A DNA stretch of 64,000 bases from Octopus vulgaris (taxonomy: Eukaryota), in NCBI GenBank assembly GCA_951406725.2, contig OX597832.1, positions 62,124,001 to 62,188,000 on the forward strand, in the 5' to 3' direction. Positions 2,340-63,504 of this stretch are shown here, one piece after another. The position numbers were made by a program, and so were the translations under genes. Under the pieces are notes generated by a model that did no database searches, had not been told where the DNA came from, and worked only from the letters and a program-made list of their open reading frames with translations. Each line of letters starts with the position of its first letter. Within the stretch, counting starts at the first letter, position 1.

Positions 2340-3590
2340 GACATTTTCCATAAAATCTGGTCCCAATTCCCAGCAGTTTGTAACAATGGAGCAACTAAAA
2401 GTAAGTAGAATAAATTGAAGATATAATCCATAGTTTGGAGTAAAGTTGTAGAGGTCGGCCTCAATTAATGGAGACAAGAACTGGCAAAATGATGTCCGGT
2501 GAAAGTTAATTCACGTAACAGTAGACATGCGGATTACTCTTCACGGCAATCAATCATTCTAGGAAATCACTTTTTGAATGAAGTTTTCCCCGCCGAAACA
2601 TAGCGAAACATTTGCTATATGTGTGCCACAGTACCTCCCAAATCTAGACATCAATACCTAAGCATTGTCCAAGCCTACTTACGTTACCAATGAAGAAAAC
2701 CAAGTATCAATGTAAGCGATTCCCGCAGACTGTGAATCCACAAACACTTTCCATTTTACAATAATGGGGGACAAACCAGAATAACGAGACAAAGATAGAA
2801 GAAATTCTGAATCAAATGTGAAATCCCATCATCAACTGCCCAACTGGATATCACTATGGTTTCGACACCTAGTCAGTACTATTCAATCGGCCGGTGTCTA
2901 CAGCGCAAAATATAGACATCAATACCTAAGCATTGTCCAAGCCTACTTACGTTACCAATGAAGAAAACCAAGTATCAATGTAAGCGATTCCCGCAGACTG
3001 TGAATCCACAAACACTTTCCATTTTACAATAATGGGGGACAAACCAGAATAACGAGACAAAGATAGAAGAAATTCTGAATCATATGTGAAATCCCATCAT
3101 CAACTGCCCAACTGGATATCACTATGGTTTCGACACCTAGTCAGTACTATTCAATCGGCCGGTGTCTACAGCGCAAAATATATAAACTCTGCATGAAAAT
3201 CCAACGGCTTATTACTACAAGTAACAACATGAGAGTAAACAAATATGAACATCTTAACACAGTAGAGAAGATGTTGATCGAAGGGTTCGTAAGGAAGAAC
3301 CGTTTGATATGGATTTGAATAAACCCACTTACCCACCGTAACACGATAATCCACAAACTATAACGAGCCATGAACTTCCTACAGTGCTACACTTTTTTCT
3401 ACAACAATTGTTCCTGCCTATAATTTCTGGCTTATGTTTCTTGTATTTCTCTGATAACGGATTACGCAGTACATGGAACTTTGGATCAATACGATAATCA
3501 AGTCCCACGAATATCCCTGAAATAGCTCTAAGCGACAATATCTGTTAATTCTACTTACTTTGCATTAGCATAAACTCTCTTAAATTAAAC
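2340..3590 (+). mobile_element. Heavily decayed Penelope-like retroelement 3' part (RT end, linker, GIY-YIG remnants, pLTR)
   Basis: Plus-strand fragments across stops and frameshifts: FVTMEQ (RT 'FTME'-like), SRHQ..LSKPTY (RQP-linker-like), STIQSAGVYSAKYI (GIY-YIG-like). A degenerate HHR 'ctgataa cggat...atccct gaaa tagctc ta' at ~3452-3531 has a 3' half resembling 19063-19085. Confidence 0.4.
2645..3180. repeat. 268-bp tandem duplication (2645-2912 / 2913-3180)
   Basis: Both copies start 'tagacatcaatacctaagc' and end 'cagcgcaaaata'; one substitution seen (tcaaatgtg vs tcatatgtg). Confidence 0.95.
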
Positions 3591-10394: not shown

Positions 10395-11156
10395 TAATAT
10401 TAGGGAGTATATCCAAACTTTCAGGGAAAAATTAGTTTTAGGATAAAAATTTCACAGTATATATATATAAATTAAAGTAGATAAAACCACTATTAGGTAA
10501 TTCAAACAGTGATAGACATAAACCAAAACATAAAAAACAAAAAATGAATATAATTAATATAATATATAATATATATATAAAATATAAAATTTAAAATTTA
10601 AATTATAAAAAATTTTTAATTTTTAAATTTATATTTTTAAATTTTAAATTTTTATTTTGTTTTATATATAACTAACCAAAAGGTATAAAAAAAGTTAAAT
10701 GTAATATAATAAGTAAAAACACTACGTACGTTTCATGGCTATAATTCAATTCGAATTACAATTAAGTTTAAATTCAAATGAAAATTCTAAATTAAAATTT
10801 CAGTCAATCTTCAGGTTAATGATAACAGTTAAATAAATAAGCAAATACAGTTAAACAATATTTTAAAGAAATAAATAAAATAATAATTTTTTTCTTATAA
10901 AGAAACTCTATTATCTAAATTAGAAACTTAAACATTAGGATTATGTCATACAACCCATTTATTTTGTTAAATATTAATTTTTAAAGTAAAAACATAGATA
11001 GAAAAATGTATTTATCTATTAAGATATAATATGGCTTTCAAAACATAATAAACTCCCGATATTGTATATTATATTACTTATATTTGTTTTTTGTTTTTTA
11101 TGTTTTGGTTTATATCTATCACTGTTTGAATTGCCTAATAGTGGTTTTATCTCTAA

Positions 11157-11160
<4 letters not shown>
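10395..11160 (-). mobile_element. Non-coding Penelope pLTR-type element with HHR motif and inverted 5' arm
   Basis: 10468-10570 is the reverse complement of 11061-11160. The minus strand at ~10720-10818 reads ctgaaga-ttgact...(AT-rich loop)...agccat-gaaa-cgtacg-ta. Related element at 36527-37013. Confidence 0.7.
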
Positions 11161-11220
<60 letters not shown>

Positions 11221-18516: not shown

Positions 18517-19107
18517 CATTTTATAAAGAATAGTCTTACAGCTGTTTCAGGGATATAAAATATATCCGATCAACAGAGACGATATGAGAGTGTTCAACAG
18601 AAGGAAATAGTAGAGTTCAATATAAAAAGTTATTTTGGAAAGGGAGATATAAAAGGAAATATGAGAACAATAATATATGCTGGTTGTCACAGATTCAGTT
18701 TCATTATTCAAGGAATGTGCTGTGTAGAATAGATAAAGAAGCTTCTCCTCGATGGTATTTAAATTCCGATAAGAGTTCATATTTTGTCATTGTAAATGGA
18801 TAGTGTGTAGCTATTAATTCCATGTGGTGTTCAACAAAATATGAACTCGTTTCGTTAATTACATTCCACGGACAAGAACCTTCTTTACCCATTCTACTCA
18901 GAACATTCCTTGGATAATGGAACTGCATCTGTGACATCCAACATATATTTTTTATTTTATTCTCATATTTCCCTTTATACTTCCTATATCTTACCCTTTC
19001 CAAAATAACTTCTTATATTGAATTCAACTATTTTCTATTTAACTCCCTCATATCGTTTCTTTATATCCCTGAAACAGCTGTAAGGCTACCTTTCTGTTTA
19101 TAAAATG
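18517..19107. repeat. ~600-bp diverged fold-back palindrome (pLTR-like)
   Basis: Outer arms 'cttacagctgtttcagggatataaa' / 'tttatatccctgaaacagctgtaag'; inner arms 'gagttcatattttgt' / 'acaaaatatgaactc'. Confidence 0.8.
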
Positions 19108-20806: not shown

Positions 20807-21198
20807 GTAATAATAATAATAATAATGATGATGATGATGATGATGATGATGATAATAATAATAATAATGATGATGATGAAGATGATGATGATGGACTCTC
20901 CCGCCGAAGAGCTTTCAGCTTTTGCCAAATGACATTCACACATGATTTGTTTTATAGTGATCAAATGTGTCGTACGTTAGTTCACTCTTTCCACAAAACA
21001 GGGGTCACGGCGTACCACGCGTCATGTGTCAAAGTGATTACAGAGCAGCGTGAGATCACGTTTTAACACAACGCACCACCTGGTCTATGAATTGTAACCA
21101 CGATCCCGTGATCGGGAGTTCGGCACAGTGACCACTAGGCTCTTCACTAGGAGCAGCAGGGGTGATTAGAAAGGGAGAGGATGATGATGGTGATGAAA

Positions 21199-21405
21199 TC
21201 GATTACATCGAACCCAGTGTGTAACTGGTACTTAATTTATCGACCCCGAAAAGATGAAAGGCGAGGTCGACTTTGCCTTTCATCCTTTCGATGTCGATAA
21301 ATTAAGTACCAGTTACATACTGGGTTCAATGTAATCGACTTAATACCTATATCTGTCCTTGTTTGTCCCCTCTGTGTTTAGCCCCTTGTGGGTAATAAAG
21401 AAATA
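21199..21405. mobile_element. Head-to-head fused SINE family A halves forming a palindrome
   Basis: 21199-21338 is largely self-complementary around gtcgac (21266-21271); the plus-strand SINE tail continues to ~21405. Confidence 0.8.
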
Positions 21406-28459: not shown

Positions 28460-29702
28460 AATGAGGACATTAACTATACAATGTCCGATTTTGAACTGAA
28501 AGTATATTTTACTTTATCTCAGCGAAAAGCAATGCAGTTAATCAAAGTATGCACCTAAATTATCGACACAATTTTGCCATTTTATCGATAGCTTATTTAT
28601 GCCGACAGAGAATTTTGGAGAGCAAGAGGTGATGAAATCACAAAGTCTGATTTGCATCTTCTTCAGATTTGAAGTATTTTCCTTGCAAAATGTTGTCAAA
28701 TTCTCAGAAAACGTGATAGTTAGTTGGTGCAATGTCTGGTGAATATGGTGGATGACAGAGTACTTCCAAGTTCAGTTCCTGTAACTCGAATAGCATTCTT
28801 TGGGAAACATGTGGTCGAACATTGTCTTGCAAAAGAATAGGCCTGTCTCTATTGACCAATCTCGGTTGTTTAGTTGCAAGTTCATTCATCATTTCATCCA
28901 ATTGGTTGATGTATACATCCGCTGTAATTGACTTGCCGGGTCCCATGAAGCTGTAGTGGATGACACCAGCGCTGGACCATCAAATAGATACCATTAGCTT
29001 TTTTGGTGAATATTCATTTTTAGATTATGTTTTGGCACTTCGTCTCTATCCAAGCACCGTGCAGAACGCTTGCTATTATTGAAAACAAAATCCACTTTTC
29101 ATCACACGTAACAATACGATGCAAAAATGGTTCGTTTTTATACCGTGATAGCAAAAAATAGCAAGCTTCAAGGCGGCATGTCATTTGATGCCCGTTCAGT
29201 TCCTGTGGTACCCACTTGTCCAATTCTTTACCTTGCCGATCAGTTTCAAATGGTCCAACACAGCTAGAATCGAAAGATCAAACCTTGCTGCTAACTCGAG
29301 ATGTAAACGCTTCCATTAGTGTTGGTATCAGGTCTACCACAGGGCTGATTTTCAAGAGTAAAGATACCAGACCGAAACCTCTCAAACCATCAACATGCAC
29401 TCATTCGCAACATCTTCAACAAAGGCTTCGTTCATGTTTCGATCTGTCTGAGATGCATTGGTTCCACGGCGAAACTCATATTCATAAACAAAAATTTTTA
29501 ATCTATTCATAGGTTCACAAAAATTGATTTACAAGAGAAAATTCGCAATATAACCAGACATCATTAATTACATTTCGAAAAGAGATGACGTAACTCTTCA
29601 ATGTTGTGAAAAAAAAGAATTGTCAGGATGAAATATTAGAGTTAACGACTGTTAAACTTGGTGCATAAGAAAATAGGACACGTCGTTCTTAATGACCTGA
29701 TA
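28460..29702 (-). mobile_element. Mariner (DD34D-type) DNA transposon, pseudogenised
   Basis: Minus ORFs contain KWVPQEL, RIVTCDEKWI, LLQDNVRPH and HPPYSPDIAPTNYHVF. Length ~1.24 kb with degenerate TIRs (gaggacattaa..tgtccgatttt vs caggtcattaa..tgtcctatttt). Confidence 0.9.
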
Positions 29703-30568
29703 TTATATTTCAGAAAAGAAAATGCTAAAATGCCGTTGTTCGTTCTGCACGTTCCTAGTTAAAAATATAGAGTATTGTAGCGAAGAAGAAAGTACATTGG
29801 CCTTCGTTTATCAGTGACTGATTCATCACTGACCTAGCATAACATAGTACACTCAATTGTGTACCATGTTAGACTTGTTATGAACTGCTCTGGGATCACA
29901 CGGGTCGGCGATAGGTTAAAGTTTCTTTCTTGGGCCGCAAAAGAAGCACGCTCCAGGAACCATCCTCAGCGCTCAGTTACTCGCACTGCATTGACTATCA
30001 CTCGTGTTCATATCAATGTGCTGCGCGTTTATGTATTTGTTATGAGGATTTATGTGGACGTAAAGCAAATACGATGTAGACTCCTAATCGTTATGATACA
30101 TTTTTGTTATATCTTTATGATTTACTGATCATATGTTATTAATTTTTATTCCAAATATGCTAAATAACATTCTAAATAGTATTTTCAACCCAATTTTTAC
30201 ATGCTATTACTAATAGTTTTATATGTACTTCGAGATCCAATTCCAAAACAGAATCATTAGAAGTGTCTAGAAACTGTTTGATGTTATTTGGGTAAGTTAC
30301 GGGTCAACTAGGGGCCTGGGGAACGAAATATATTTTCGCTATATATTCTGTTATTCATTTATCAATGATTCACTGAACATACTGTAGAGTTTTTTTTTAT
30401 TATTTAGAGCCTAGCACACGTGATAATCGAGGATAGACGTATTTAACAGAGCACTGCGCAGTGTTCTCGGTGGCGAGCGGTGTTCTCGGAAGTGTGCAGT
30501 GTTCTCGGAATACCGATAAAACCGAGCGTGTTACATACGATCTATTCCAGTGTGATTACATTAATTTA

Positions 30569-30838
30569 AGCGCGGAAGGTGTTTATAAGTCATTTAAGAA
30601 ACACACAAAAACCGTTAGATTCACTTCAACATTTCAATTTAATTTGCTGCCAAAATATTTTCGTCGCTTTGAGACCGCAACCTGTTCACTGACAAAATTC
30701 CGTGCTGCATTTTGTCAGTGAACAGGTCGCGGTCTCAAAGCGACGAAAATATTTTGGCAGCAAATTAAATTGAAATGTTGAAGTGAATCTAACGGTTTTT
30801 GTGTGTTTCTTAAATGACTTATAAACACCTTCCACGCT
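30569..30838. repeat. Near-perfect 130-bp-arm palindrome containing an HHR motif on each strand
   Basis: Arms 30569-30698 and 30709-30838, 10-nt loop, two mismatches seen. Confidence 0.95.
30712..30760 (+). ncRNA. Putative minimal type-I hammerhead ribozyme, G3:C8 variant
   Basis: Stem I ttgtca/tggcag; core gtgaaca+g; stem II gtcgc/gcgac; gaaa; palindromic atat; predicted UUU cleavage site. Confidence 0.65.
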
Positions 30839-31344
30839 GCAATAGTTTTCGTTCCAGCATACGATCTCAGATCAGATCACTTGCTATGCAAGTACATCTC
30901 CGTAATATATTAATTTTCTTTTCTATTTAATTCCTTTTGTTTCCTCCGATATAAAAAGAAAGAGAAACGGATATAGAAGATAGAAATAGGAGGGAAAACT
31001 ATTGGGCAATGTCATTATTCAGTGTGGGCCGAAATTCACACAAAATAAGTTCAATACTCTCCGTAATGTCTCTCCGTAACGATGAATTCACATGTACTTG
31101 TATATGACGAAGAAATGGATAATGATAATCTGTTCTAGTAAAAGTACACGGCCTGATATTTGGCGGGAGCGGGGACTAGTCTATTACATTGACCCCAGTG
31201 TGACAATGGTACTTAATTTATCGACCCCGAAAGGATGAAAGGCAAAGACGACTTGGGCGGAATTTGAACTCAGAACGTAGAGACGGACGAAATGCCGCTA
31301 AAGCATTTTGCGCGGTGTGCTAACGTTTCTGCTAGCTCGCCGCC

Positions 31345-34448: not shown

Positions 34449-34455
34449 TGTTATA

Positions 34456-35714
34456 TTGGGGGCAGCCATCGGTATTAGTATCGCTGGTGATGTGGCCAAC
34501 CTCTTCATGGTATGGTGGGACAGAAGGCTTAAAGAATGCCTACTGCAGAAATCCATACTCGTAAACATGTACTCTCGCTATGTTGATGATATCAATATAG
34601 TAGTAAAGGCACCCCCACAAGAGAGTACTGTTGATATAGTAATAGAAACTAATACTATGGAGAGCATCCAGCAAATAGCTAACTCCATCCACCAGAGTAT
34701 TAAGGTCACAATAGACTACCCCACTAAACACCCCAACCATAGACTACCAGTACTAGACACTGAACTCTGGCTAGAAATTGTGAAAAATAAAACCCAAATC
34801 CTTCATTCATACTATGCAAAACCTATGGCCTCAAAATACCTGATCCACTGGAACTCAGCCATTGCGGGCAATGCCAAATTCAATATTTTGATGGCAGACC
34901 TCGTCAGAATAATGAGAAATGTGTCACGCATGTGCGAGCCTACAGAATTAAAGAGACACATACAGTATTTCATTCACCGCATGCAGTTCTCAGGTTACAG
35001 CCATAAAGAAAGGATCAGAGTATACAAAGGAGCCATGAAGAAATTTGATAATATATTATGTAATGATAGGAATGGGATTTGCCCACTCTATAGGAACAAG
35101 TCATGGAACACTATAGAAAGGACAAAAAGAAAATAGGGAAGGCCAACTCTTGGTATGATAGCCATAAATACCAGAGTGTCATGTTCGTTGACACCACCCC
35201 TGGAGGTGAACTAGCGTACCGCTTTAGAAGGACCCTAGATAAACTTAAACTAAGAATTAAGGTTGTTGAAAAGCCAGGCAACCCTATCAGATCTATAATT
35301 GGTAGAAGCTATCCTTTTAGTAGAACTCTCTGTACGGATAACTATTGCACTGTATGTAGATTTAGCCCACAAACGAACTGTAAAGCCAGAAATGTGGTCT
35401 ATAGTATAAGATGCATAGAGGGACGATGCAGTAACAAGACAGTAACATACGTAGGGGAAACTGCAAGAAGCATTGGTGAGCGGGTGAATGAACATTGGAG
35501 ACAACTCAAGGAAGGTAAAAGCTCATCGATTCTGTACCAACACGCCGAACAAGAACACGGGGGATCAATCAATAACATAGAGATTAAGATATTGTCCACA
35601 CATAGAACAGATGCAACAATTAGACAAATTACAGAAGCTACACATATAATAGAAAATAAACCTAGCCTGAATAGAAAACTAGAATGGAGCAATAGCGCAC
35701 ACCACAACATATGA
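34456..35714 (+). pseudogene. PLE reverse transcriptase (34456-35136) + Cys-rich linker and GIY-YIG endonuclease (35103-35714), split by one frameshift
   Basis: GAAIG..AG.VANLFM, YSRYVDDI, LPVLD; CTDNYCTVC; NVVYSIRC...[16 protein letters not shown]; RQITEA..I....PSLN. Confidence 0.9.
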
Positions 35715-36221
35715 CAATAGTGGATCCTGCAAACATAATAAATACACAGGTAATTAAAGAAATAGAAATGAATATCTATATATATGTGTATGTGTATATA
35801 TATGTATATGTATATGTGTATATATGTCTGTATATATGTATATATATATATGTATATGTATATGTATGTATATATATGTATATGTATATTCTTTTTTTTT
35901 TTTTTTTCGATTAGATTTATTATTATTATTACTAATATTGTTGTTATACATACATACAAGCATATGTAATGATAATAATGGGCGGATGTAAACACATGAA
36001 CAAAATTAGAACAAAAGCAACAACAACAAAAACAAAATACAAATTACAAGAATGTATATAACCAGAAGATACAAATATTACAGGTATCCCCCCCACACAC
36101 ACACTAAATAAACATAGACGCACATAGAGATATAAGCATGCGCAAATGAAGACATACAATAGAAATACAAAATGGCTGACGGTTAGTAAGGAGAGACACA
36201 AGTAAGTGAGAAGAAAACAAA

Positions 36222-36526: not shown

Positions 36527-37011
36527 AATAATATTAAGGAATATTACTCGAAACATACTGGGAAAATTAAATTTAGTATTAAATCAAATTTCACAATATA
36601 AATATATAATATATATAAATTAGAGAAAAACCATTATTATTTAATTCAAACAATGATAGACATAAGCCAAATCATATAAAAGAAATAAAATATATGATAA
36701 AACATATATTTAGATCACAAAAAGTACATAATAATAAGTAAACAATATATAATAAGTAAAAAGAATACGTACGTTTCGTGGCTATAAATTCACTTCAATT
36801 CGAATTCGAATTAAATTTAAATTTAACTGTAATTCGAACTGAAGTTATAGCCACGAAACGTACGTAGTCTTTTTACTCATTATATAGTGTTTACTTATTA
36901 TTATGTACTTTTTCAGATGTAGATATATTTTTTCATATATTTTATTTGTCTATACGATATGGTTTATGTCTATCATTGTTTGTATTACATAACAGTGGTT
37001 TTTCTCTAATT

Positions 37012-37013
<2 letters not shown>
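36527..37013 (-). mobile_element. Fold-back pLTR-type element, same family as 10395-11160
   Basis: 36616-~36810 inverted against ~36820-37013; both arms carry the HHR 3' half gccacgaaacgtacgta. Confidence 0.8.
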
Positions 37014-37082
<69 letters not shown>

Positions 37083-37354: not shown

Positions 37355-37610
37355 GTGTATTTGTTTGTAAAATGTAATTTGTTACTCCTAAATGTAACGT
37401 GGACTTTTGGCGATTTTTTCATCCCTCTTCCTTTTCTCTTGGAGTTACCCCTGTCTCCTGTTTTTGAAGAAGAGCTTTGCTCGAAACGTAAAACAACCAA
37501 TCTTTCTTTCCATACGTGAGCGTCTTATTAAAACTTTGCACGTAACACGTCCTCGCGTATTTGTTTTTTTCTTGCTATCTTTTCTTCAACGTAATTTTTT
37601 TATTGATTAT
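37355..37610 (+). mobile_element. Short HHR-bearing pLTR-like element
   Basis: 37459-37495: tgttt-ttgaaga-a-gagc/gctc-gaaa-cg-ta-aaaca. Confidence 0.65.
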
Positions 37611-44919: not shown

Positions 44920-45074
44920 TATATATATATATATATATATAGGTGTGTGTGTATGTGTGTGTGTGTGTTTGTGTGTGTGTATGTGTGTGTGTGCGTGTGT
45001 GTGTGTGTGTGCGTGTGTGCGTGTGTGTGTGTATGCATATATATATATGTGTGTGTGTGTAGTATGTATGTATA

Positions 45075-45263
45075 TATAGGGAGAATTCACAAAAAGCAAA
45101 AGACGAAGTGAGGTGGTGTAGACAATAAACCGATGTATTAGTGTAATGCTCAGGAAGTGTATAAGTTTTTAACGTTTCGAGCCTACGCTCTTCCACAGAA
45201 AGGAACACAGAAAGAAATAAGGAGAGAAAATAAAGGATGTGTAGTGGCTAATGATCTATCATG

Positions 45264-45265: not shown

Positions 45266-45317
<52 letters not shown>

Positions 45318-45320
<3 letters not shown>

Positions 45321-45630
45321 CTATACAATATGTTACATTACTCGGTAGTCAAGATGAAACTCTGAGTTTCAGATGCCGAAGTGGAAATCCACAACACCAT
45401 CTCATCGGTTATCTGGCTATTTGAAAACGTTATGAAAAAATTATGAAAAAATAACGTTTTCAAATAGCCAGATAACCGAAGAGATGGTGTTGTGGATTTC
45501 CACTTCGGCATCTGAAACTCAGAGTTTTATCTTGACTACCGAGTAATGTAACATATTGTATAGATAAATTTCCTCTATTTACATAATATTGAGGTCTCTT
45601 TCTTTCTTTTGTTATCTTACCGTTTTATCA
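45318..45630 (+). mobile_element. Fold-back pLTR-type element (arms 45318-45433 / 45451-45566) with HHR
   Basis: 116-bp arms, two mismatches seen; the right arm continues ~60 nt; flanked by (TA)n. Confidence 0.9.
45470..45532 (+). ncRNA. Putative type-I HHR, U4C variant
   Basis: Stem I agataa/ttatct; core ccgaaga; stem II gatg..catc(+t); gaaa; ctc-a-gag; predicted GUU site. Confidence 0.7.
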
Positions 45631-45754
45631 ATATATATATACATACATATTTATATTTATATATATATGTATGTATTTTTGTATGTATGTATATGTATAT
45701 ATGGCCGCAGCTAAATGTCTGAAACGATTAAAAGTATAAAAGGAAGACTGACAG

Positions 45755-47444: not shown

Positions 47445-47492
47445 AAAACTGTCCGACGAACGGGAACGTGAAACTCTCAGTCACAGTATTTT
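47445..47492 (+). ncRNA. Putative compact type-I HHR, U4C variant
   Basis: actgt-ccgacga-acg-ggaa-cgt-gaaa-ct-ctc-ag-tc-acagt: all three stems pair; predicted GUC site. Confidence 0.7.
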
Positions 47493-47721: not shown

Positions 47722-48424
47722 GAAACACACATAAACATTCGTACATATATACATGTGTTTTGTGTGTGTATATGTGTGTATGCGTGTGTGAGTGTGTGTG
47801 TGTGCGCGCGCGCGAAGAAAGACTGTAAACATAAATTTAAAACAATGCAGGTCCATTAATAAATGCACCAACTTGAAACTCGAGACACTAAATGGAAAAA
47901 AGAATACTATAAAGAAATGATATAGTCTCAACACATCATTGAATTAGTCGCTCTCAAATGTAATATATAGACCCAAATATTCGTGGTACTCCGTCGGTAA
48001 CGACGACCAGGGTTCCAGCTGATCCGATCAACAGAACAGCCTGCTCGTTAAATTAACGTGCAAGTGGCTGAGTACTCTACAGACACGTTCACCCTTAATG
48101 TAGTTCTCAGGGAGATTCAACGTGAAACAGTGTGACAAAGCACGCGCACCTTCATGTGGGTTCACCATTTCTTTATTATCTCCCTTTCTTCTAACCTCTT
48201 CTTTCAACCATTTCTTCTAACCAGTCCCCATACTCGACTACTAAAGATACAGTTTTTTTTTCATTTTCTCCCCGTTTGTTCTCTCTTATTCCTTTCTGTT
48301 GAAGAGCGTAGGCTCGAAACCTAAAAGACTTTTCCTTTTTCTCAAGCGTCAAACTCATACATCTGTTCATTGTTCATACACCTTTCTTCGTATTTTGTTT
48401 TTCTATAAATTGCAACTATATATA

Positions 48425-48541
48425 CTGTTTTTCTTTAAACCTGATACTTATTCTATCGATCTTTTTCGCCAAACCACTAGTTTATGGGGACATAAATACA
48501 TCAGCACTAGTTATCAAATGGTGGTGAGGAAAAACACACTA

Positions 48542-50019: not shown

Positions 50020-50408
50020 CCAATAATATATATATACGCACATATATATATTTTCTATTTTCTATTCTCTCTCCATGTATATTTATGTGTTCCTATTTGT
50101 TGAAGACCTTAGGCTCGAAACGTAAAAGACTTTCTCAGTTCCCGACCGTTAAACTAATGCATCTTTTTTATTTTGTAAATTTTTTTCTTTTATAAATTGT
50201 GTTGGTGCTACTATTAAGGCGGTTATCTGGCAGTACTGTAAGCATGCCGAACAAAATGTATATTTTGCTCTTTGTTACTCTCTTATTTCAGATTCCGCCA
50301 AAGATAACGTTGCCGTTCATCGTTCCTGGGATCAATGGAATAAATACCAAATGATAATCGGCGTAAGTGACTATCCATCTCCTCCCTCATTGTGCCTATA
50401 CTAGAAAG

Positions 50409-62335: not shown

Positions 62336-63039
62336 ATGCTGGTAAAATTTCGAACAAATTTATCAAAAAATATTTAAACATAATAAATAACATTAGGGTA
62401 ATAATGCTCTTTCTAGCACAAGGCTTTCCTATTTGGGAGCCTCTTGATGTGTTTTAATATGCACGATATTTTTATGCGAATGATATATAGTCTATTGACT
62501 AATTCTTTTTTTTTTGTGCTAGGCCACTGGTAATAATAATTTATACAATTCTTATTACCCTAATGTTATTTATTATGTTTAAATATTTTTTGATAAATTT
62601 GTTCGAAATTTTACCGGCATCCTCTCTTTCGCCGGAAATAATCTGCATCTGCGCAGTGGTCTGAAAAGTTAAGATATACAGGTAACTAGTTTGCATGTGG
62701 ATCTAGTTTTGTGAATATTTGAAATCTAAAGGCTCCCTACTGACGAAAACTAGCCTCAGTAAATATTTTTTTACTGGAATTAGTTAGAAACCGTGGTCTA
62801 GGAAGTAACTGAGATGGTAAACGTTTTTCATTTTCATTCCTTTCGAGAATTTATCCCCAATTAGTCGTTTGAGTTTTTAACTGCTCTTTCTAGCACAAGG
62901 CTTTCCTATTTGGAAGTCTCTTCATGAGTTTTAATGTACACGATACTTTTATTTGAATAATATATAGTCTATTGACTAATTCTTTTACGTGCTAGGCCAC
63001 TGGTAATAATAATTTCTATAATTCTTATTACCCTAATGT

Positions 63040-63310: not shown

Positions 63311-63504
63311 ACAAATGTCAGAAAGACATAAACAAGATATTAATGTTGTTTATGATGTGTCGGGTGGCCTATATTAAAATTCCGCTAAGAAGTATTTCTT
63401 AAAATGTGGACATAAAGAAAAATACATTATGGTAGAATTTTAAAATAGGCCACGGGACACATCGTAAACCATTAATATCATATTTACGTCTTTCTGACAT
63501 TTGT
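63311..63504. repeat. Diverged inverted repeat (~70-bp arms, ~50-bp spacer)
   Basis: acaaatgtcagaaagac...tggcctatattaaaattc / gaattttaaaataggcca...gtctttctgacatttgt. Confidence 0.85.

Follow-up and report, generated by a model that had tools for sequence, protein, structure and literature searches.

A probable Penelope-like insertion with a variant hammerhead-like fold, joined head to head in a (TA)n tract of Octopus vulgaris

The hairpin studied here raises two questions: what kind of element left near-perfect inverted arms at this place in the DNA of Octopus vulgaris, and whether the hammerhead (HHR) motif proposed for both arms is a genuine fold. The locus lies in a window of 64,000 nucleotides (the whole stretch of DNA that was analysed; contig OX597832.1, positions 62,124,001 to 62,188,000), which is microsatellite-rich, about 35% GC and animal-type. 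In O. vulgaris, 190 families of Penelope-like elements (PLEs) account for 6.8% of the genome (PMC13282606), and the giant squid has 235 Rfam hammerheads (PMC6962438). The hairpin is probably a dead, 5'-truncated, head-to-head insertion of PLE type in (TA)n, formed from a terminal repeat with a variant hammerhead fold.

The initial annotation described a near-perfect hairpin with 116-bp arms, and this was confirmed. Arm 45318-45433 pairs with 45451-45566, 114 of the 116 positions are complementary, and the mismatches are 45356G/45528T and 45404A/45480A. Both differences are departures of the left arm; the right arm has the majority letter at every listed variable site. The placement of a short inverted arm on the 5' side and a longer arm on the 3' side was also right, and it is the known layout of PLE insertions. 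The spacer of 17 nt contains an 11-nt tandem duplication (45430-45440 recurs as 45441-45451). Both flanks, where any target-site duplication would lie, are TA-type microsatellite. The left copy reaches 8 nt deeper into upstream element sequence than the right copy and has no tail, whereas the right copy has the tail and lacks those 8 nt. Unfolded copies in public runs X1 and X20 have upstream loose ends whose final 8 letters are the reverse complement of 45434-45441. Because the left copy is 8 nt longer at its 5' side but tail-less, neither arm would be a plain snap-back copy of the other. At the junction there is a 2-nt AT microhomology plus an extension on the antisense arm, and the filler is likely a templated insertion. 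Coordinates are given in Table 1.

Table 1. Features of the hairpin locus in window coordinates, with strand and basis of assignment.
Feature	Position	Strand	Basis
Left (TA)n target microsatellite	45268..45317		Sequence
Element end in inverted orientation, 5'-truncated and without tail (116-bp arm and 8 element bases at 45434-45441)	45318..45441	-	Arm alignment, upstream loose ends
HHR-like motif of left arm (core CCGATGA); A.C mismatch at 45356 disrupts stem I	45352..45414	-	Arm alignment, folding, descriptor scans
Junction filler, 9 nt, within 11-nt tandem duplication	45442..45450		Duplication observed; origin inferred
Right arm: sense, 5'-truncated copy	45451..45566	+	Arm alignment; X20 contig matches 45451-45627 with 0 differences
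Type I hammerhead-like motif, U4C, predicted cut after 45526 (GUU)	45470..45532	+	Descriptor scans, folding
Family extension ("tail"), one-sided, ~65 nt	45567..45631	+	Depth continues; loose ends behind 45626 enter (TA)n
Right (TA)n-rich target microsatellite	45632..45702		Sequence

The element is a repeat that recurs in public sequence data. Twenty of the 24 listed runs contain the stretch or part of it, representing 12 studies and eight organism labels; no RNA run is among the listed holders. Four runs (X1, X7, X20, and X22) were compared with 45434-45640 at 80% likeness, and matching contigs numbered 9,845 in X1, 876 in X7, and one in X20, which may be an RNA run; the raw RNA run X22 contributed 0 reads, which carries no weight for or against presence or expression. 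The other holder runs enter through the count alone. Plateau depth, divided by the 31-fold contig overlap and by single-contig depth, suggests as a rough figure a thousand or more family copies in X1; the summed depth itself is no copy number. Among the best 13 of 182 rows of loose ends and the best 17 of about 10,800 pieces, unfolded copies run on upstream of 45451 in at least 32 contigs of X1 and at least one of X20 (30 upstream letters are visible), and the family has two ends. At the long end, loose ends enter (TA)n after ~45631 (at least 61 contigs in X1 and at least 16 in X7); at the short end, (TA)n follows the arm end at 45566 (at least two contigs, X7). At least three opposite-strand joints lie elsewhere (45457/45499, 45467/45573, and 45496/45567; one contig each), so the fold-back position, whose comparison across copies the initial annotation had proposed, is variable among the matches listed. 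The junction of the hairpin locus lacks independent confirmation because its first seven spacer bases (45434-45440) have depth 0 in all four runs. Depth at 45441-45447 is 125 in X1 and 4 in X7, which may represent the same junction without the duplication.

Ramps of depth were rejected as copy boundaries, since they are a 30-nt edge effect of 31-mers. Exact-pattern scans gave no locus in prokaryote genomes and none in a second viral scan; four viral and three metagenome loci were discarded as chance matches of 19-24 nt with unrelated flanks. Two 12-letter motifs of the element are absent from the supplements searched for PMC13282606 and PMC8557442. Dfam, Repbase or an O. vulgaris library may already list the family.

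PLE hammerheads form pairs on opposite strands, 100-700 bp apart, with a palindromic helix III, action as dimers, and low activity (PMC4209133). In the right arm (+ strand), and there only, three helices stand in type I order, stem III being weak as a monomer. Stem I has 6 bp (AGATAA/TTATCT, 45470-45475 with 45527-45532) and is followed by the core CCGAAGA (45476-45482), with C at core position 4 (U4C). Stem II (GATG/CATC) is lengthened by 2 + 4 pairs, with pair probabilities of 0.97-0.99; GAAA at 45514-45517, CTCAGAG, and GUU at 45524-45526 complete the motif. Two departures set it apart from the hammerhead core CUGANGA...GAAA...NUH, namely C4 and one extra base (45513) between stem II and G12 of GAAA, which the initial annotation had overlooked; the remaining core letters and GUU are present. 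A base before GAAA is found in one of the 56 motif rows in the supplement of PMC4209133. The proposed 6-bp stem I, CCGA(A/T)GA core, extended stem II and GUU site all stand, but the ctc-a-gag element does not form a closed stem III hairpin. The palindromic CTCAGAG cannot close a 1-nt loop, and monomer stem III has three pairs at a probability of about 0.3. As a dimer, ACTCAGAGT of stem III self-pairs at -7.4 kcal/mol. The isolated right arm has its HHR fold at -13.6 kcal/mol versus -18.4 kcal/mol for the minimum-energy fold (4.8 higher), and the arm folding z-score is about -1.

Descriptor scans place this fold relative to chance. The first descriptor matched the window twice (the right-arm motif and a weaker one at 47453) and 20 shuffled windows four times, none of these strong. 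Because the variant motif had been chosen after the fact, a more tolerant descriptor was used, which accepted a single mismatch anywhere in the core and an insertion of one base at either flank of stem II. In 20,000 dinucleotide shuffles of the 182-nt element it found a stem I of at least 6 bp in none, of at least 4 bp in one, and of at least 3 bp in five. The right-arm hammerhead-like fold exceeds chance. Rfam hammerhead models gave no match to the motif, even at E<=10, and Rfam at gathering level gave no match in the window; below that level, only generic miRNA hairpin matches appeared. By its predicted structure the right-arm motif is a genuine hammerhead-like fold with two consensus departures, and its cut after 45526 is a prediction. 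Stem II begins with an ATG, but the frame opened there ends after only 20 codons (45484-45546, +); stem II is likewise where the ORF of the Anolis PLE begins (PMC11167929).

The motif is present in both arms because the arms are an inverted duplication, and the claim of a hammerhead in each arm is accurate for the right arm, where it is intact. In the left arm, the 45356/45528 difference sits in stem I and produces an A.C mismatch that breaks it, and the same change lets the GAAA strand pair into stem III. Neither descriptor scan of the window reported the left-arm motif. In the full + transcript, no HHR pair has a probability above 2e-15, and the ribozyme at this locus is predicted to be silent, buried in the duplex of a read-through transcript. 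Because the antisense arm is transcribed first on either strand, the locus is predicted to be self-silenced. If transcribed, it could feed endogenous siRNA or editing. In the source element, any ribozyme activity of the motif would be weak and would depend on dimers or on help from a protein. HHR cleavage in Anolis Poseidon is protein-assisted and unnecessary for insertion in vitro (PMC11167929).

Typical PLE insertions are described as inverted, 5'-truncated copies that have a tail of 30-40 bp on one side and favour (TA)n (PMC8557442), and head-to-head inversions with an inverted copy unit have been described for them (PMC3846280). The hairpin has an inverted 5'-truncated copy joined head to head at a junction that varies in the family, a one-sided tail of ~65 nt with two family ends (the short end in at least two contigs), a type I hammerhead-like motif in variant form within the probable terminal repeat, and an AT-rich/(TA)n target for a dispersed, multi-copy element. 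An RT or GIY-YIG gene linked to the element was found neither in the 30 upstream letters nor near the hairpin in the window. With no ORF linked to the element, its architecture is the ground for assigning it to the PLEs. The Anolis Poseidon enzyme cuts and extends both strands in vitro at AT-rich targets, and its tail lies between two RT starts (PMC11167929). By analogous steps, a PLE RT-endonuclease, itself not seen here, would have cut both strands of the TA tract. Two cDNAs would have been primed, one from a distal start (the tail end, ~45631) and one from an internal start (45566). Both may have stopped early, just upstream of the hammerhead, and their 3' ends would then have been joined via the 9-nt templated filler. 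Two copies, their differing ends, the filler, and a family with two ends are directly observed for this two-cDNA account.

Other origins of the hairpin were weighed against these data. With the same PLE source, the hairpin could go back to an antisense transcript whose 3' end folded back and served as its own primer (Arkhipova et al., 2013); resolution would then have removed the tail from one side. This was proposed for head-to-head inversions (PMC3846280), yields the same orientation, and fits the AT microhomology and the antisense-arm extension at the junction, but it requires antisense RNA, which is so far hypothetical here. Self-priming alone also leaves unexplained why the short arm stops where separate copies end in (TA)n, and the Anolis enzyme in vitro extends both strands from a sense template (PMC11167929). 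We judge it unlikely, though worth keeping in mind. Insertion at TA of a DNA element bounded by terminal inverted repeats, either a MITE or a foldback element, would account for the long inverted repeat, the TA flanks, the high copy number and the non-coding sequence. It is largely refuted by the copy data of the public runs: family sequence extends 65 nt beyond the right arm and also upstream of the fold, fold-back joints vary among copies, and the arms are not element termini because unfolded copies continue upstream of 45451. Such an origin is now very improbable. The failure to recover the hairpin junction in the four runs compared is what one would expect of a library or assembly fold-back artefact at one repeat copy, yet the arms differ at two sites, each has an end of its own that is seen in other copies, the filler is likely templated, and the layout recurs in other repeat families of the window; we give an artefact even less weight. 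Many Rfam miRNA models score on the hairpin, as they might on a microRNA or hairpin-RNA gene, but their scores are far below gathering (best 98 of 195 bits), reflect the generic hairpin shape, and fall on a high-copy repeat, which leaves such a gene the least credible of these origins.

Whether the fold matters to the element is a separate issue, on which we see the chances as even. One view is that the motif has decayed into a relic, marked by U4C and by slippage of one base at stem II, which neither cleaves nor is under selection and which spread with a master copy that did well. In favour stand two departures next to the core, no Rfam match, and the lack of covariation. In vitro, hammerhead activity drops considerably with U4C (PMC3088659) and insertion did not need HHR cleavage (PMC11167929), and core changes are present in other HHR-like repeats of the window too (U at position 6). 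Variation in the family bears on the same point. Thirteen family substitutions reach at least 2% in X1 or X7, none of them at C4, N7 or 45528, and C4 is fixed in the family, with no T variant at 45477 at or above that frequency in either run. None of the 13 falls in the 40 positions of stem I, core, stem II (core 4 bp) and stem III (P = 0.035, or 0.021 in the well-covered zone), which argues against a relic at P of about 0.02-0.035. This depletion is weak evidence of constraint because other stretches of 32-39 nt in the element are likewise free of variants. Both of the two family substitutions in the paired stem II extension keep the pair. Two-sided covariation in the stems was absent among the 13 substitutions, which are single-site frequencies and not haplotypes. 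The extra base varies (45513 T>C, 35% in X1 and 25% in X7), and either letter could pair with G45483 if 45512 were the bulge, which also speaks against decay. A hammerhead with a CCGA core cleaves in viroid-like RNA, namely zeta virus RNA (10.64898/2026.09.16.752053). The observation that one inter-arm difference falls on the variable N7 position was borne out (45480/45404). As a sign of selection this difference was rejected, N7 being absent from the 13 family substitutions, and it looks like a private change.

Several other repeats in the window have hairpin or hammerhead-like features. The initial annotation had drawn a parallel with a hairpin at 30569 and proposed a shared integration mechanism. 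In the 30569 hairpin, arms of 130 bp (98.5%) enclose 10 nt of spacer; it had no HHR match in either descriptor scan and has no (TA)n flanks. The proposal is unsupported, and a common mechanism is possible. Its surroundings (30540-30870) have a 10-nt direct repeat, CATACGATCT, on both sides. Three hairpins of the window, at 36602-37030, 10458-11178, and 18517-19107, compare better with the one studied here, and because several other head-to-head hairpins and HHR-like repeats occur in the window, the head-to-head layout is common there. The first two are head-to-head hairpins of one further family, which end in TA repeats and differ in spacer length; the copy at 36.8 kb has a degenerate HHR-like GAAACGTAC motif in both arms. 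The hairpin at 18517-19107 is older (75% arm identity). By eye, an HHR-like motif can be traced at approximately 18520-18585 (-), with core CTGTTGA, a 7-bp stem II, a palindromic stem III, and two extra bases on each side of stem II.

Another family of HHR-like repeats is present at 45070-45240 (-), 48260-48425 (+), and 50063-50163 (+), the first copy lying directly left of the hairpin's (TA)n. Core position 6 is U in all three copies, and U3 marks a related motif at 37464 (+). Two of these three copies share one order of parts: a U-rich flank, the HHR, about 100 nt, a pyrimidine-rich end, and then a TA repeat. At about 34450-35770 (+) there is a 5'-truncated, frameshifted PLE remnant between (TA)n tracts, with an RT part containing YVDD, a cysteine-rich linker, and GIY-YIG (Pfam E 0.0009, below the cut-off). 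It has no HHR match at its 3' end and no sequence similarity to the hairpin element. Judging from the sequence of this remnant, PLEs occur in the O. vulgaris genome and target (TA)n. The Pfam scan covered 145 of 447 frames of at least 60 aa, low-complexity and shorter ones being left out, and gave only GIY-YIG and DDE transposase remnants, none near the hairpin. A mariner-type transposase fragment is located at 28707-28979 (-; Pfam Transposase_1, E 4e-11). Local inverted repeats of other repeat families occur at 21193-21344, 62336-62620, and 63311-63504, and a 275-nt tandem duplication at 2640-3182 (99.3% identity) is either a recent duplication or an assembly artefact.

The layout of the hairpin is already known and fairly ordinary, and the locus is ordinary repeat debris. 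The mild point of interest is a fixed CCGA core in a large family found under several organism labels. If the CCGA variant cleaves, the natural hammerhead core in animal retroelements widens and standard searches undercount; if it does not, the view gains support that PLEs need the fold more than they need cleavage. Copies are numerous and young enough for statistics over their junctions to serve as a test of how inverted repeats and tails arise in PLEs, and if the two-cDNA reading of the junction is true, such junctions would decide between two-primer and self-priming models of PLE inversion. A wider reading, to which we assign a low probability, is that a young PLE family of a thousand copies (or its non-autonomous partner) runs on a fixed-CCGA, 3'-bulge hammerhead missed by CUGANGA descriptors and Rfam, so some "hammerhead-less" PLE lineages may carry such variants, and that the junctions record two separately primed cDNAs from two RT starts. 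In the literature covered, mostly outside subscription papers, no report was found of a CCGA-core PLE hammerhead, and its titles and listings gave none of twin priming in PLEs.

Natural hammerheads with U4C are known from viroids. The substitution is a natural variant that lowers activity yet supports viroid infection (Ambros and Flores, 1998, cited in PMC3088659). Viroid and viroid-like U4C hammerheads share the CCGA core with the hairpin, and cleavage there is reduced but real. They are type III or viroid motifs with a stable stem III, whereas the hairpin motif is genomic and of type I, with a weak stem III and a second departure. Retrozymes have been described as tandem derivatives of PLE ends (10.64898/2026.07.22.740005). 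Non-LTR retrozymes, like the hairpin element, are non-coding, have a type I HHR, and are related to PLE pLTRs, but they form head-to-tail tandem arrays. The copies at the hairpin are head to head, the family has one locus in the window, and the HHR is predicted to be unable to fold in its transcript.

The type I minimal and dimeric hammerheads of PLEs (Cervera and de la Pena, 2014, PMC4209133) share with the hairpin motif a type I topology, a long helix II, a palindromic helix III, a U-rich 5' flank, and opposite-strand pairs 100-700 bp apart. In Fig. S3 of that paper C4 occurs in 0 of 56 motifs (53 CUGA and 3 UUGA), a count that the descriptor largely fixes, whereas the hairpin has CCGA. The hairpin motif also departs in carrying its extra base 3' of stem II instead of between A9 and G10.1. 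Unlike the Anolis PLE, the hairpin has an ATG at stem II that opens no long frame. The insertion unit of EN+ PLEs (PMC3846280, PMC8557442, PMC11167929) differs from the hairpin in that the latter has no ORF and has a tail of ~65 nt versus the published 30-40 bp. The two share head-to-head 5'-truncated copies, a one-arm extension, two ends, an AT-rich/(TA)n target, an HHR near the 3' end, and a dispersed high copy number.
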